Assembly (NCBI GenBank): GCA_964590815.1
Contig: CAZPYR010000001.1
Span: 1-51,514, forward strand
Direction of reading: 5' to 3'
From: an uncultured Gammaproteobacteria bacterium
GTDB lineage: Bacteria; Patescibacteriota; Microgenomatia; UBA1406; GWC2-37-13
Length of the DNA: 51,514 nucleotides
In this document: piece by piece, positions 2,713-35,982 of the stretch
Layout: each line of letters opens with the position of its first letter
Numbering within the stretch: position 1 is the first letter of the stretch
The notes under the pieces: generated by a model
Databases searched by the model: none
What the model saw: only the letters and a program-made list of their open reading frames with translations
Told to the model about the DNA's origin: nothing
Program-made: the position numbers and the translations under genes

Positions 2713-2867
2713 GTATCGCTTTTTTTTGATATTTGGAGCTTCTTATAAAGAAAAGTTTTTGATCACCTGTGAATTATATATCCACATTTTACGTAAATAT
2801 ATTAGTTGTCAATTTTTAAGTTCAGAATGTATTTTTAAAAAATTAAGTTATACTATTTACAGTTATG

Positions 2868-3094
2868 TGGCAATGAAGAGGAGGAGTAACAAAAGCGAGT
2901 TTGGTAGGAAATCAACTCACCGACTGAAAGGTTGAACAAACAGATTTTTGTGAAAGGCGCCTTGGAGCTACAAACCTCTAATGAAGAAATTCAACTTAAG
3001 CGATTATCGAGAGTTGAATAATTAGGGTGGAACCACGAGATAGAAAACTCGTCCCTAAGCTTGTATGTTACAAGTTTACTGACGAGTTTTTTTT
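2868..3094 (+). promoter_or_regulatory. T-box leader 1 (glyQS-class layout, putative GGC/Gly specifier)
   Basis: K-turn (UGGC-AAU-GA at 2868..2876 pairing with GA-GCUA at 2965..2970). Specifier loop GAAAGGCG with GGC at 2956..2958. Stem III AUUCAACU/AGUUGAAU. T-box core AGGGUGGAACCACGAG at 3024..3039, with AGGG able to pair with the downstream CCCU to form the antiterminator and leave the UGGA bulge. A terminator follows. A possible -10 TATACT at 2849..2854 would start the transcript near 2861. Confidence 0.75.
3044..3094 (+). terminator. Intrinsic terminator of T-box leader 1
   Basis: AAAACTCGTC (3044..3053) pairs with GACGAGTTTT (3081..3090), and the T tract continues to 3094 (8 T). Its 5' arm overlaps the antiterminator 3' strand. 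Confidence 0.8.
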
Positions 3095-3107
3095 ATGGAA
3101 TAAAATC

Positions 3108-3273
3108 GTGACGATGAAGGCTTGGCACGCCGGAGTCACAAAAAATTAGGAGATAAGAGAGTAAGTTCAATGGATTAACATTACTTACTAAATAGGGTGG
3201 AACCGCGACTCTACCATAGAGAGCCGTCCCTATACAGTTACATTATAAATAGCTGTATATGGACGGCTTTTTT
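3108..3273 (+). promoter_or_regulatory. T-box leader 2 (ultrashort Stem I variant)
   Basis: K-turn GUGAC-GAU-GA ... GGA-GUCAC (3108..3139), capped by GGC/GCC and the 7-nt loop UUGGCAC (3122..3128). Stem III AGUAAGU/ACUUACU. T-box core AGGGUGGAACCGCGAC at 3194..3209. A terminator follows. Confidence 0.6.
3222..3273 (+). terminator. Intrinsic terminator of T-box leader 2, abutting the glyA start codon
   Basis: AGCCGTCCCTATACAG (3222..3237) pairs with CTGTATATGGACGGCT (3253..3268), followed by a T6 tract. The glyA ATG is at 3275. Confidence 0.75.
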
Positions 3274-3274
3274 A

Positions 3275-4501
3275 ATGAATTTTATGTATACAAAAATATT
3301 GCAGAGTATTGACAAACACAATCAGTACCGAAGGGAATGTATCAATTTAATTGCTTCGGAAAATGTTATGAGTCCAATGACTAGGAAAGTTTTGGCATCT
3401 GACCTTGGGAATCGGTACTCATATGGAGAAGCAGGAAAAAAATTATTTGCCGGGAATACATATATGGATCAGATTGAATGTATTGCGGTTGATCTTGCTA
3501 AAAAAGCATTTAGTGCAGAATATGTAACTGTACAGCCTATTTCTGGAATGGTAGCTAATCTAGTAGCCTTTAATGCTGTACTCAAACCTAACGATATTGT
3601 AATGACGTTACCACTACATCATGGAAGTCATTTCAGCCACGAAAAAAAAGGAATGCTTAAATTATTTCAGGCTCGTATAGAGTATTTGCCATTTAACAGT
3701 GATGAGTATGTAATAGATATAAATGCTGCGAAGGATGCTATTACAAAGCTACGGCCAAAACTAATTATAGTGGGTGCTATGGAGTTTCTTTTCCCTGTTC
3801 CATTACGTGAATTAAAGGAAGTATGTAGCAAAACAGGAACGTATATTATGTATGACGCTGCTCATGTTGCCGGTCTAATAGCCGGGGGAACATTTCAAAA
3901 TCCCTTACAGGAAGGTGCTGATATTCTCTCAATGAGCACCAATAAAACTCTCGCTGGGCCTGATCATGGTATAGTAGCCACATCACACGCTAGCAGATTT
4001 AGAGAAGCTATTTGGCATGGTGTTAATCCTATGTTTTTGTCTAACATCCATCCACATCATATTGGAGGTTTAGCAATAACACTGGCTGAATTACAGATGT
4101 TTGGAAGAGATTATGCCACACAAGTAATTAAAAATGCACAGGCACTTGCGAAGGAATTGTATAAACATGAGATTGATGTGCTTTGCCCTCAAAAAGGGTT
4201 TACCCAATCGCATACTCTACTTATTAACACGCATGATGAAGCAATGAAGTACGTGAGATTGCTTGAACAAGCGAATATAATGTCAAATACATTTATGAAC
4301 TGCACTGATACTATATATGAATCTGGGCTACGGTTTGGCACAAATGAAATAACAAGAGTTGGAATGAAAGAGCAAGAAATGAAAATTATTGCTCAGTTTA
4401 TCTGTAATGTTTTATTAAAACGCAGATCGGTTACTAAAGTACGAGATGAGGTACGAGAGTTTCGCAAACCATTTCAGAAAGTTCACTATTGTTTTGAGTA
4501 A
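3275..4501 (+). CDS. glyA: Serine hydroxymethyltransferase family protein (divergent)
   Basis: LIASENVMSP, QPISGMVANL, YDAAHVAGLIAGG and the PLP-lysine segment SMSTNKTLAGPDHG. The start is moved from 3197 to ATG 3275 because 3197..3274 encodes the T-box 2 terminator. Confidence 0.8.
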   Translation: MNFMYTKILQSIDKHNQYRRECINLIASENVMSPMTRKVLASDLGNRYSYGEAGKKLFAGNTYMDQIECIAVDLAKKAFSAEYVTVQPISGMVANLVAFNAVLKPNDIVMTLPLHHGSHFSHEKKGMLKLFQARIEYLPFNSDEYVIDINAAKDAITKLRPKLIIVGAMEFLFPVPLRELKEVCSKTGTYIMYDAAHVAGLIAGGTFQNPLQEGADILSMSTNKTLAGPDHGIVATSHASRFREAIWHGVNPMFLSNIHPHHIGGLAITLAELQMFGRDYATQVIKNAQALAKELYKHEIDVLCPQKGFTQSHTLLINTHDEAMKYVRLLEQANIMSNTFMNCTDTIYESGLRFGTNEITRVGMKEQEMKIIAQFICNVLLKRRSVTKVRDEVREFRKPFQKVHYCFE

Positions 4502-5254: not shown

Positions 5255-6574
5255 ATGTCTCTGGATAATTTGAAAACTGAGCAATATGCTCAAAAAAGGA
5301 TTGTACCTTATATGCTTGGAATTTTCATTGTCCTTTGTTCTCTCCAAATGGTGGCAGTCTTTCTAGGTATTCGTTTTTTTTCTCTACAACAAACTCGTTC
5401 TGAACTCAATGATTTTACTAAGCGCGTTGCACAAGGACTATCTTATCAAAACGGCAAATGGGATACGACAAAGTATACTTCCGATCCCGAAACACCGCAT
5501 CCAAGTGGATCAAGTGGTTTTTCTACACCGCTCTATATTATAGCTGCCGATGGTTTTGTCATTGAACGAAATGCTCCTATCCCGGGAATTCTTGATTCTT
5601 CTGACTTTAGCCATCTTATGGAATTTCAACAAGCTCAGACGATAAGTGTTGTAACCAATGAACAATGGAGGATTATGTCACGACCTTTAGTTCATAATGG
5701 GAAGACAATTGGCGTAATTGTTGGAGCCCTTTATCATCCAGAAAGATTTGTTCCGAATGTCTCGGATTCTAAACTACTTAGTACTATAAATTATCTTGAA
5801 AAAGCTGTGCCTATTAATAATGGCGTAATTGATGTCAGTAATGTTGACGTGCGAGGGGTAGATTATGACATATCTTTTGAAATCGTCAGTAATTTCAATA
5901 AGGTCTTATTAAATAATGGTAGAATGCCGACATTTATCGATAAAAGTTATGTGTACGCGGAACTAAACGCAAATAACACAGCAAAGATAGTAAGGGATTC
6001 ACAAAAAAACACTTCATTTATGATAGCTAAGCAAACTATCTATGATAGCGAAAATAACCCGGTGGGTATAATTATTGCTGGGAAATCTATTGGGTTTATC
6101 TACTTAGTCTTTATGCAAGCCCTGCCCTATGTATTAGGTTTCATGCTCTTGTCTACGCTAATATCAATATATCTGGTTCAAAATCTTATCAAAGGTGTAA
6201 TTCAACAAATTATTACTTATTATGAAAAATCGAAACAGGAAAAACACCTGCCCAATACTCTTGATTTTGACAGGAAAACAGGAAAGCTTATAATCGGAAA
6301 TCAAACCATAGATATACCACTGGATTCTAACCAGTATTATTTTTGTAAAGCGATATTCTCCAATGTGAAGAAAAGATGGGAACTAGATGAGTTACTTGAG
6401 CAATTTGGAGACGATCCCAGTAGTGACAATTGGCGTAAAGTTTACGATACTATGACCGTCTTGAATAAAAAAACAGCGCAGTATTTACCCGTAAAATTGA
6501 TTGAACTTAAGGAGAAAACATATATTCTAAATCCAGATCTTCACCATCTCATCAAACATATTCATACTCCTTGA
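5255..6574 (+). CDS. Membrane one-component regulator: TM, extracytoplasmic sensor-like domain, TM, C-terminal OmpR/PhoB-type winged helix
   Basis: TM1 at residues ~18-42 and TM2 at ~283-310. The C-terminus (LDFDRKTGKLIIGNQTIDIPLDSNQYYFCKAIFSNVKKRWELDELLEQFG...WRKVYDTMTVLNKKT...LIELKEKTYILNP) follows the Trans_reg_C pattern. Confidence 0.55.
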   Translation: MSLDNLKTEQYAQKRIVPYMLGIFIVLCSLQMVAVFLGIRFFSLQQTRSELNDFTKRVAQGLSYQNGKWDTTKYTSDPETPHPSGSSGFSTPLYIIAADGFVIERNAPIPGILDSSDFSHLMEFQQAQTISVVTNEQWRIMSRPLVHNGKTIGVIVGALYHPERFVPNVSDSKLLSTINYLEKAVPINNGVIDVSNVDVRGVDYDISFEIVSNFNKVLLNNGRMPTFIDKSYVYAELNANNTAKIVRDSQKNTSFMIAKQTIYDSENNPVGIIIAGKSIGFIYLVFMQALPYVLGFMLLSTLISIYLVQNLIKGVIQQIITYYEKSKQEKHLPNTLDFDRKTGKLIIGNQTIDIPLDSNQYYFCKAIFSNVKKRWELDELLEQFGDDPSSDNWRKVYDTMTVLNKKTAQYLPVKLIELKEKTYILNPDLHHLIKHIHTP

Positions 6575-34483: not shown

Positions 34484-34581
34484 AAGGGTATATTATATCA
34501 CAAAAGCATCGTATAACAATATGCTATAAGATAGTTTTTATGTGTTAGAAGCTATTGAAAAAATATAGTATAATGTGCTTC

Positions 34582-35982
34582 ATGATACGCACCCGTATAG
34601 CACCTTCGCCAACAGGACAAGATATACATATAGGTAATCTATATACGGCTTATATCAACTGGGCATTTGCTAAAAAAAATAATGGTAAATTTATCATCCG
34701 CATTGAGGATACAGATCGCACTCGCTATGTAGAAGGAGCGGAAGAGAAAATACTTTCAACATTACAGGCTTATGGCCTTACTCATGATGAAAGTGTAGAT
34801 ATCGGTGGTGCATTTGCCCCTTATAGACAATCTGAAAGATTGCCTATTTACAAAAAATATGCAAATCAACTGATTGAGTCCGGACATGCCTACTATTGTA
34901 TTTGTTCACCAGAAAGACTTTCAGAAGTACGCAAGCAAATGACAGATAAAAAACAGATTCCTCGTTATGACAAGTACTGCCTAGATAAGCAAAATGAAGT
35001 AAAAAAGAAAATAGAAGCAGGGGAGAAGTGGGTCGTACGTTTAAATGTACCTGAAAATACTGATGTTATCTTTGAAGATATCATTCGTGGGGAAATAAAG
35101 ATTAATACGAGTAATATTGATGATCAGGTACTCCTGAAATCTGACGGATTCCCGACGTATCATATGGCTGTGGTCATAGATGATCATCTTATGGAAATAA
35201 GCCATATCATCCGGGCAGAAGAATGGATATCCTCAACTCCCAAGCATGTTCTCTTATACCAAGCATTCGGATGGGATTTACCTCTGTTTGCTCATCTACC
35301 AATCCTTCGAAATCCAGATAAATCTAAACTCTCAAAGCGTAAAAATCCAGTGTGGGCCTCATGGTACTTGGAGCAGGGATATTTACCTGAGGCGATTCTC
35401 AACTATTTAGCTTTGATGGGCTGGTCACATCCAGATGAAAAAGATATCTTTGATAAAGAAGAATTTATAAGCGTATTTAGTCTTGAGAGAGTGTCTCCTG
35501 TCGGACCTGCTTTTGACCCTAAAAAGCTCGAGTGGGTAAATGGACAGTACATCATGAAGCTCTCAGATGATGAACTGGCTGCAAAATTACAAACTTTTTA
35601 TCATGAGAAACAGTTATCGGAAACTATTGTCAGGAAATCAGCACCTCTTGTTAAGGAGAGAATTAAAATACTGTCTGATTACTGGCCTTTGTCATCTTTC
35701 CTTTTCGAAAAGCCTCAACAATACGAAGTAGATTTGTCACAAGATAGGGAAAAATTAAATGTAGTTATAAGTGTTTTAGAAGAGGTAAAAGACTGGGAAG
35801 CCACTCATTTGGGAGAAGCATTGCTTCAGGTAGCAAAAGACAATAATATACCAAATAGTAAATTTTTTATGATGCTTCGTGTTGCGATATCGGGTAAAAA
35901 AATTTCTCCACCCTTAAATGAATCAATGGAAATTTTAGGAAAAGAGGAATGTGTCTCTAGAATAAAGATGATTATAGGTTAA
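34582..35982 (+). CDS. gltX: Glutamyl-tRNA synthetase
   Basis: RIAPSPTGQDIHIGN (HIGH region), RIEDTD and KLSKRK (KMSKS). The start is moved to ATG 34582, because 34555 is a TTG inside the promoter region. Confidence 0.9.
   Translation: MIRTRIAPSPTGQDIHIGNLYTAYINWAFAKKNNGKFIIRIEDTDRTRYVEGAEEKILSTLQAYGLTHDESVDIGGAFAPYRQSERLPIYKKYANQLIESGHAYYCICSPERLSEVRKQMTDKKQIPRYDKYCLDKQNEVKKKIEAGEKWVVRLNVPENTDVIFEDIIRGEIKINTSNIDDQVLLKSDGFPTYHMAVVIDDHLMEISHIIRAEEWISSTPKHVLLYQAFGWDLPLFAHLPILRNPDKSKLSKRKNPVWASWYLEQGYLPEAILNYLALMGWSHPDEKDIFDKEEFISVFSLERVSPVGPAFDPKKLEWVNGQYIMKLSDDELAAKLQTFYHEKQLSETIVRKSAPLVKERIKILSDYWPLSSFLFEKPQQYEVDLSQDREKLNVVISVLEEVKDWEATHLGEALLQVAKDNNIPNSKFFMMLRVAISGKKISPPLNESMEILGKEECVSRIKMIIG

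Follow-up and report, generated by a model that had tools for sequence, protein, structure and literature searches.

The window analysed here is a stretch of 51,514 nucleotides (nt) from an uncultured bacterium of the Microgenomatia, within the Patescibacteria or candidate phyla radiation (CPR) (assembly GCA_964590815.1, contig CAZPYR010000001.1, positions 1 to 51,514). Our subject is the leader of a serine hydroxymethyltransferase (SHMT) gene, glyA-like, in which two glycine-type T-box elements follow one another, each with a terminator (Table 1). Leader 1 is full-length and resembles the T-boxes of glyQS; leader 2 has an 'ultrashort' Stem I, a small hairpin on a kink-turn (K-turn) that carries a candidate glycine specifier in its apical loop.

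The gene itself is identified as SHMT by Pfam (E 2e-63) and by NCBIfam (NF000586, 364.8 bits), the latter match clearing its cutoff of 335 narrowly. The closest named protein comes from a Candidatus Roizmanbacteria metagenome-assembled genome (60% identity); outside its own CPR clade the nearest sequences are archaeal (Caldarchaeum, Thaumarchaeota, Hadarchaeum and Bathyarchaeota, 43-46% identity) and not typical bacterial GlyA. An extension of the open reading frame (ORF) from GTG 3197 was rejected as a start because it overlaps the leader and its conserved RNA helices, and an ORF at 2711-2935 that overlaps leader 1 was rejected as coding because it runs through such helices.

Two T-box units in series

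The Rfam T-box model (RF00230, gathering cutoff 93 bits) was run in E-value mode on a 651-nt region and matched both leaders with significant E-values (3.9e-17 and 1.5e-7), though under the gathering score; the match to leader 2 spans 3105-3234 at 40.7 bits. The alignment covers the whole of leader 1, which lacks the Stem II segment of the model and has GGC in the specifier position. Its distal Stem I also aligns to the model and is conserved, nearly identical, in the first units of two related loci (L014-1 and L019-1), where GGC stands in the same column. In leader 2 just 7 nt take the place of model positions 18-95, the greater part of Stem I, and the distal platform for the tRNA elbow is absent. 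Leader 1 presents its specifier with a following purine in an internal loop of Stem I; leader 2 instead has its codon and a following A in an apical loop. The minimum free energy (MFE) fold of leader 2 consists of a 5-bp base helix, an internal loop, a 3-bp stem with a 7-nt loop, Stem III and the antiterminator, and leaves the ~20 nt between Stem I and Stem III (3140-3159), which are A-rich, unpaired.

The CCCU partner of the AGGG strand lies inside the 5' arm of the terminator in both leaders, and the antiterminator and the terminator are therefore mutually exclusive in each. Both alternative folds were obtained by structure prediction, in agreement with the RF00230 alignment, and the terminators are strong (arms ACUCGUC...GACGAG and GCCGUCC...GGACGGC). 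Two RF00230 matches and two terminators in a single leader region make up two complete units. The T-box core pattern, AGGGUGGAACC(A/G)CGA, is weak evidence when taken bare (2 matches in the window against 0.45 expected), and both copies are aligned with high posterior probability to RF00230 positions ~185-200. A gathering-mode Rfam scan of the window reported tRNA-Pro and no T-box; the elements go unannotated because their scores fall under the gathering cutoff. Further weak Rfam matches in the region (Ref64 and several miRNA families) are the two terminator hairpins.

Much of this had been anticipated in a preliminary description made from the letters of the sequence. The two T-box cores at 3024..3039 and 3194..3209, the mutually exclusive folds of each copy, the UGGA of both acceptor-binding bulges, the glyQS-class layout of leader 1 and the downstream SHMT gene have all been confirmed here. 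For leader 2 it had proposed a K-turn and a short hairpin with GGC in the loop UUGGCAC, which is what the MFE fold returns, and the comparative data below strongly support that loop as a selected feature.

Table 1. Elements of the leader region and the adjoining gene, in window coordinates
Element	Position	Strand	Sequence, evidence or remarks
Candidate sigma-70-type promoter	2806..2835	+	TTGTCA-18 nt-TATTTT; consensus scan, 9/12 positions; weak match
Leader 1, full-length glycine T-box, glyQS-like, without Stem II	2864..3059	+	RF00230 77.8 bits, E 3.9e-17, model positions 1-219
Leader 1 Stem I	2867..2971	+	Rfam alignment, folding, coordinate check
Leader 1 base helix	2867-2871 : 2967-2971	+	GUGGC : GCUAC
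Leader 1 K-turn strands	2872-2878, 2964-2967	+	AAUGAAG, GGAG
Leader 1 AGGAGUA strand	2882-2888	+	
Leader 1 distal Stem I	~2895-2945	+	
Leader 1 specifier loop	2952-2959	+	GAAAGGCG
Leader 1 specifier GGC (Gly)	2956..2958	+	Rfam specifier position GAA-a-NNN-a-CC; purine G2959 next
Leader 1 Stem III	2989..3019	+	AUUCAAC...GUUGAAU; inner CUUAAGC..UU..GA.AGU conserved (invariant columns)
Leader 1 T-box sequence and antiterminator	3024..3056	+	AGGG 3024-3027 : CCCU 3053-3056; bulge UGGAACC 3028-3034
Leader 1 T-box core	3024-3039	+	AGGGTGGAACCACGAG
Terminator 1	3046..3094	+	AACUCGUC...GACGAG + U8; fold -27 kcal/mol, z -4.5
Leader 2, glycine T-box, ultrashort Stem I, without Stem II	3103..3231	+	relatives-only model R2, 101.2 bits, E 1.7e-21
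Leader 2 ultrashort Stem I	3108..3139	+	MFE fold; both helices covary across 32 units
Leader 2 base helix	3108-3112 : 3135-3139	+	GUGAC : GUCAC
Leader 2 K-turn strands	3113-3118, 3132-3134	+	GAUGAA, GGA
Leader 2 hairpin	3119-3131	+	GGC / UUGGCAC / GCC; 3-bp stem, 7-nt loop 3122-3128
Leader 2 candidate specifier GGC in apical loop	3124..3126	+	U before, A after
Leader 2 Stem III	3160..3189	+	apical UGGA...CAU conserved; UGGA at 3171-3174
Leader 2 T-box sequence and antiterminator	3194..3231	+	AGGG 3194-3197 : CCCU 3228-3231; bulge UGGAACC 3198-3204
Leader 2 T-box core	3194-3209	+	AGGGTGGAACCGCGAC
Terminator 2	3223..3273	+	GCCGUCCCUAUACAG...CUGUAUAUGGACGGC + U6; fold -37.3 kcal/mol, z -7.2; terminator scan
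SHMT (glyA-like), presumed regulated gene	3284..4501	+	start ATG 3284 or ATG 3275

The ultrashort form among Microgenomates

Relatives were taken as loci with an SHMT 50-61% identical to that of the window, on about 20 Microgenomates contigs. Every such locus with upstream DNA holds one or two T-box cores, all with the UGGA bulge and all below 93 bits in RF00230. Three units are full-length (leader 1, L014-1 and L019-1) and 32, leader 2 included, are ultrashort. The order is full-length then ultrashort in the window, L014 and L019; ultrashort then ultrashort at 11 loci (L011, L016, L017, L018, L021, L056, L094, L096, L097, L098 and L099); and a single ultrashort unit forms the only leader in L006, L009, L092, L093 and L095. 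Tandem leaders recur at 14 related loci. Judged by these sequences, the ultrashort element is the commonest T-box form in this clade and can stand as sole leader. These arrangements bear on the idea that the full-length and ultrashort tandem is one composite switch sharing one tRNA, with Stem I of leader 1 holding the anticodon and elbow and the discriminator of leader 2 reading the 3' end. Partially tandem T-boxes do exist, their mode of action being unknown (review PMC7583486), and leader 2 begins only ~10 nt past terminator 1; yet leader 1 owns a complete discriminator and terminator, leader 2 owns a codon loop, and ultrashort units are conserved alone and as ultrashort pairs, which makes a shared tRNA extremely unlikely.

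The loop of the ultrashort hairpin is strongly constrained. Its triplet is GGC in 31/32 units and GGA in the remaining one (L011-2), both glycine codons; the base that follows is A in 32/32, and the base that precedes is U in 28/32 and G in 4/32. The hairpin stems, by comparison, vary with compensation (GGC/GCC, GGGA/UCCU, GGUA/UACC, GCA/UGC, CUCA/UGAG, UAGCA/UGCUA, GCCA/UGGC, GUUA/UGAC and AGC/GCU), the stem register being taken from the alignments and the covariance model. In a structure-blind MAFFT alignment 84.7% of the cells are paired against 65.4% in column shuffles, none of 500 shuffles reaching the observed value, and pairing drops to 33-43% when the partners are slid by 1-3 columns. 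Double changes occur there in all five helices, including 4/4 pairs of the short hairpin and 4/5 pairs of the base helix. A model-fitted alignment gives 87.2% paired cells and a covariation score of 0.561 against 0.186, and RNAalifold, unaided, finds the same base helix, hairpin, Stem III and antiterminator, with 17 of 22 pairs compensatory and no helix between Stem I and Stem III. When the whole window was searched with a covariance model built from the 31 ultrashort units outside it (R2), leader 2 was matched from end to end (Table 1) and the sole other match was the 3' half of leader 1.

The conserved short loop and the covarying helices of the 32 units bear out the hairpin of the preliminary description, and they support leader 2 as a member of a conserved class and not a decayed copy. 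Were it the remnant of a duplicated T-box, its terminator would attenuate constitutively or without specificity, and the sensing of tRNA-Gly would be left to leader 1 alone, a reading favoured by the low RF00230 score of leader 2 (40.7 bits), by its lack of the elbow platform deemed necessary for transcriptional T-boxes (PMC7583486) and by the origin of ultrashort forms through deletion (alignment A5, below). Decay is nevertheless highly improbable given that the 32 ultrashort units keep the GGCA (once GGAA) loop, the T-box core and the bulge while their helices covary, that five loci have an ultrashort unit as sole leader and eleven have ultrashort pairs, and that a relic would not persist across SHMT orthologues only 50-60% identical. 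As to the K-turn, its 5' strand reads GUUUGUA and not GAUGAA or GUUGAA in L016-2, L017-2, L018-2 and L093-1 (e.g. L093 2858-2890), where tandem G-A pairs are not obvious and the GGCA loop is kept.

How the ultrashort form arose is suggested by alignment A5. Here the first unit of L094, L097, L098 and L021 proves to be one and the same leader as its full-length counterpart in the window, L014 and L019. Lower helix (GAUGAAGAGG...CCUUGGAGCUAC), CUUAAGC-type Stem III and discriminator are common to both sets, which differ by a clean gap of ~72 nt that extends from just 3' of the lower helix to just 5' of GGC and corresponds to distal Stem I. The stem of the ultrashort hairpin is therefore the helix found beneath the specifier loop in an ordinary Stem I, and the specifier strand has turned into the apical loop. 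The ultrashort form probably arose by deletion of distal Stem I, and the clade holds apparent deletion intermediates, from full-length to ultrashort, at one orthologous site.

To our knowledge the Stem III of T-boxes is usually not conserved in sequence; two conserved types are present here. The first has an invariant CUUAAGC, a covarying mini-hairpin and GA.AGU (window 2996-3012 and the first copies of L014, L019, L021, L056, L094, L097 and L098), and is shared by full-length leaders and their ultrashort derivatives. The second carries the tip motif NN-UGGA-N(2-5)-CAU above a covarying stem (window 3169-3181), recurs at that place in 21 of the 32 ultrashort units (L019 330-345 and L093 2915-2930, for example) and accompanies only ultrashort Stems I. 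Its UGGA is the tetranucleotide of the T-box bulge and also equals U followed by the glycine codon GGA; the tip may touch the tRNA, as a second contact or as a compensating one. Individual units depart further from the common plan: in the first unit of L011 (2717-2802) the ultrashort Stem I leads to the T-box core through ~20 nt with no Stem III, followed by a normal terminator and U tract, and the second unit (2836-2959) has the loop CUUGGAAAA with GGA, which would match tRNA-Gly(UCC), next to GGC in the first. The two units of this tandem may read different isoacceptors.

When the 3' parts were folded, both window leaders proved to end in an intrinsic terminator and U tract, as do 24 of the 32 ultrashort units. 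The other eight have no U tract and instead pair a Shine-Dalgarno-like GGAGG/AGGGA located 6-9 nt 5' of the ATG (L006-1, 2942-3000; L019-2, 371-443; L021-2 and L056-2, both 1428-1500; L022-2; L092-1, 2943-3000; L097-2, 2942-3000; L098-2, 1653-1717). One kind of ultrashort sensor thus serves transcriptional as well as translational outputs, and some relatives combine the two in a single leader, with the translational unit next to the gene and the transcriptional one 5' of it.

No T-box core was seen at more distant SHMT loci (archaeal and others), and all matches of an SHMT-protein scan of genome contigs were distant SHMTs (30-38% identity; archaea, Ignavibacteria and Terriglobia) without a T-box core. 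The ultrashort model R1 matched no additional copy in the rest of the window, nor any at the more distant SHMT loci. In viral contigs the pattern TGGCA..GAG..GGGTGGAACC gave 111 matches, about the chance expectation for 18 specified bases and two variable gaps, and none fits R1; there is no evidence of ultrashort units in these contigs.

Proposed sensing of tRNA-Gly and genomic setting

The only tRNA gene in the window is a tRNA-Pro(UGG) at 1110-1184 (Rfam 66.9 bits; also ARAGORN). Near the leaders of two relatives there are genes for tRNA-Gly, with anticodon UCC in L009 and CCC in L092, both having discriminator U73 and an anticodon loop UU-NCC-AA. The UGGA bulge fits the U73 seen in these two isoacceptors, and the loop sequence UGGCA would be complementary to U33-G-C-C-A37 of the GCC isoacceptor, so that up to five loop-loop pairs appear possible. 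Such pairing would accord with the classical finding that anticodon loops complementary to one another associate much more tightly than free trinucleotides do.

We propose the following course of events. Transcription would start a few tens of bases 5' of 2867, and the anticodon of uncharged tRNA-Gly(GCC) would pair with the GGC codon of each leader, displayed by leader 1 in the internal specifier loop of a long Stem I and by leader 2 in the apical loop of a 3-bp hairpin on a K-turn, without elbow platform and without Stem II. The free 3' end, U73-C-C-A, would pair with UGGA of the T-box bulge, stabilise the antiterminator and allow RNA polymerase to pass the terminator; charged tRNA-Gly would make no 3'-end contact and the terminator would form. 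The contacts lost from leader 2 may be offset by an all-G-C codon-anticodon duplex and by a pre-stacked UGGCA loop resembling an anticodon loop. With two attenuators in series, both of which have to be read through, the read-through probabilities would multiply, lowering the basal level and steepening the response to glycine starvation: as tRNA-Gly charging falls, SHMT would be induced and glycine made from serine.

K-turns are protein-binding motifs, and the hairpin might accordingly serve an L7Ae-type protein or act as a folding aid, leaving the ultrashort units to sense only an uncharged 3' end, that of any tRNA ending in UCCA; contact through three bases of a small loop does seem weak where platform and Stem II are both lacking. 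This is very unlikely in view of the loop triplets, which are exclusively the glycine codons GGC (31) and GGA (1) and always precede A, like the purine after canonical specifiers, and in view of the full-length homologues, which hold the same GGC at the canonical specifier position and in which the hairpin stem corresponds to the helix below the specifier loop.

We hold with good confidence that both leaders are functional tRNA-Gly sensors. We lean only slightly towards the more specific proposal that the ultrashort glycine units are self-sufficient and decide transcription termination through two tRNA contacts, the kissing of the anticodon with the apical loop and the helix between NCCA and the bulge. 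The anatomy of the leaders, their alternative folds, the conservation and covariation among relatives, the identity of the gene and U73 in the tRNA-Gly of relatives are shown directly; tRNA binding, loop-loop pairing, the multiplicative logic and the promoter are what we infer from the sequences.

Several points weigh against this interpretation. Transcriptional T-boxes generally need a long Stem I with an elbow platform, disabling of which compromises function, and forms with a short Stem I are translational (PMC7583486, a review of 2020); by analogy with these model systems a terminator-coupled unit devoid of platform and Stem II might bind tRNA too weakly or too slowly, and the kinetic competence of a two-contact sensor at a terminator is the main uncertainty. 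Both leaders lie below the Rfam gathering cutoff (77.8 and 40.7 against 93 bits), their E-values being significant all the same. In 4 of the 32 loops a G precedes GGC, so that the fifth pair proposed here, with A37, is not available to every unit, and in the four units with the GUUUGUA strand the K-turn is degenerate and may be non-canonical or absent. A GCC isoacceptor was found neither in the related loci nor in the window, which carries only tRNA-Pro. Finally, the promoter assignment in the window is weak: consensus sites are no more numerous there than in shuffles, while in relatives a near-consensus TTGACA-N17/18-TAnnnT can be read 10-20 nt 5' of Stem I.

A class II glycyl-tRNA synthetase (GlyRS) gene lies directly 3' of glyA on the same strand in L011 (4251-5636) and L093 (4288-5679), where the T-box probably controls a glyA-glyS operon; the regulon is therefore tied to glycine. 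Elsewhere glyA is followed by a gene for a formyl-transferase/ACT protein (L099) or an asparagine synthase-like gene (L092), and in the window by an ORF without a Pfam match (5255-6574). A glutamyl/glutaminyl-tRNA synthetase gene in the window (34555-35982) has no T-box core nearby, and within the window T-box control is, as far as core sequences indicate, specific to glyA. The segment 16283-20448 on the minus strand encodes a GlpX-type fructose-1,6-bisphosphatase, a phosphoglycerate kinase and a DeoC/LacD-family aldolase, typical CPR core metabolism unrelated to T-boxes. This phosphoglycerate kinase is 100% identical to a protein named in NCBI as Candidatus Woesebacteria, with other matches in Roizmanbacteria and Microgenomates; together with the closest named SHMT this places the host in the Microgenomates group of the CPR/Patescibacteria. 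The G+C content of the window is ~36%.

Comparison with known T-boxes and glycine riboswitches

Leader 1 matches the full-length glyQS/glyS T-boxes of Bacillota (Bacillus subtilis, G. kaustophilus, O. iheyensis and S. aureus) in its GGC specifier, its UGGA bulge, which would match U73, the absence of Stem II, the K-turn at the base of Stem I and the terminator/antiterminator switch; by sequence it is an ordinary glyQS-type T-box apart from host and target gene. The system differs from these in that the gene is SHMT (glyA) and not GlyRS, the host belongs to the CPR/Microgenomates and the units stand in tandem. Leader 2 and the 31 related units, furthermore, lack the whole distal Stem I including the elbow platform, and do not reach the gathering score of Rfam.

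Among known elements leader 2 comes closest to the ultrashort (US) T-box of actinobacterial ileS, reportedly described by Sherwood, Grundy and Henkin in 2015. That class shares with the units described here a short Stem I helix, a specifier in the terminal loop, the absence of an elbow contact and the retention, proposed for our units, of the anticodon and NCCA contacts. In contrast to it, the present units read a glycine codon, sit 5' of glyA in CPR bacteria, mostly end in a terminator and U tract (24/32, with leader 2 a terminator with U6; eight sequester a Shine-Dalgarno sequence), have only ~20 unstructured nt between Stem I and Stem III, with neither the Stem II nor the IIA/B pseudoknot that US elements keep, and place the K-turn directly under the hairpin. 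The US class has been described as translational, tRNA-Ile-specific and confined to ileS (bioRxiv 10.1101/2023.02.28.530422; PMC12990946).

Tandem T-boxes of Bacillota, for example in the trp, thrZ and leu/ilv operons (PMC12452182), are likewise serial complete units with their own terminators 5' of an amino-acid biosynthesis gene, an arrangement expected to sharpen the response and reduce its leak. Known tandems consist of full-length units, whereas here a full-length unit is paired with an ultrashort one or two ultrashort units follow each other, and some relatives put a transcriptional unit before a translational one. In a survey of riboswitches in tandem (PMC12452182), glyA figures solely among the glycine riboswitches and not among the T-boxes. 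The glycine riboswitch of the Streptomyces gcvT-gcvH-glyA operon (PMC12452182) resembles our leaders as a glycine-responsive, often tandem RNA element 5' of glyA; it binds free glycine and turns on catabolic genes at glycine excess, whereas the T-boxes would be expected to sense uncharged tRNA-Gly and to turn on glycine synthesis at scarcity.

The literature searched was incomplete; in it we found no paper joining T-box riboswitches with Patescibacteria or the CPR (an earlier description elsewhere is possible), no T-box 5' of glyA, and ultrashort T-boxes only as translational ileS elements. This agrees with the novelty suggested in the preliminary description, except that the full-length and ultrashort tandem is not unique to the window, since L014 and L019 have it too. 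What appears to be new is a glycine-specific, mostly terminator-based ultrashort T-box without Stem II that would control glyA, is conserved in Microgenomates and is often arranged in tandem. If the proposal is right, these would be the smallest natural T-boxes (~125 nt including the discriminator). They would likewise be the first ultrashort class beyond ileS of actinobacteria, and would give the CPR/Patescibacteria their first described T-box regulon. T-box regulation would be extended to CPR bacteria and to glyA, in hosts of minimal biosynthetic capacity for which SHMT may be the main source of glycine, and there is an annotation gap, standard Rfam thresholds missing all these elements. Such compact units could serve structural work and synthetic biology, and the full-length and ultrashort versions of the same leader in related genomes provide a natural comparison set.

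The prevailing rule holds that terminator-coupled T-boxes need a long Stem I and its platform for fast and tight tRNA capture, and that a short Stem I is tolerated only in the slower translational ileS switches that lean on Stem II. Conserved terminator-coupled glycine T-boxes with neither element would be a natural counter-example to this rule, and would define the minimal requirements for sensing a tRNA.

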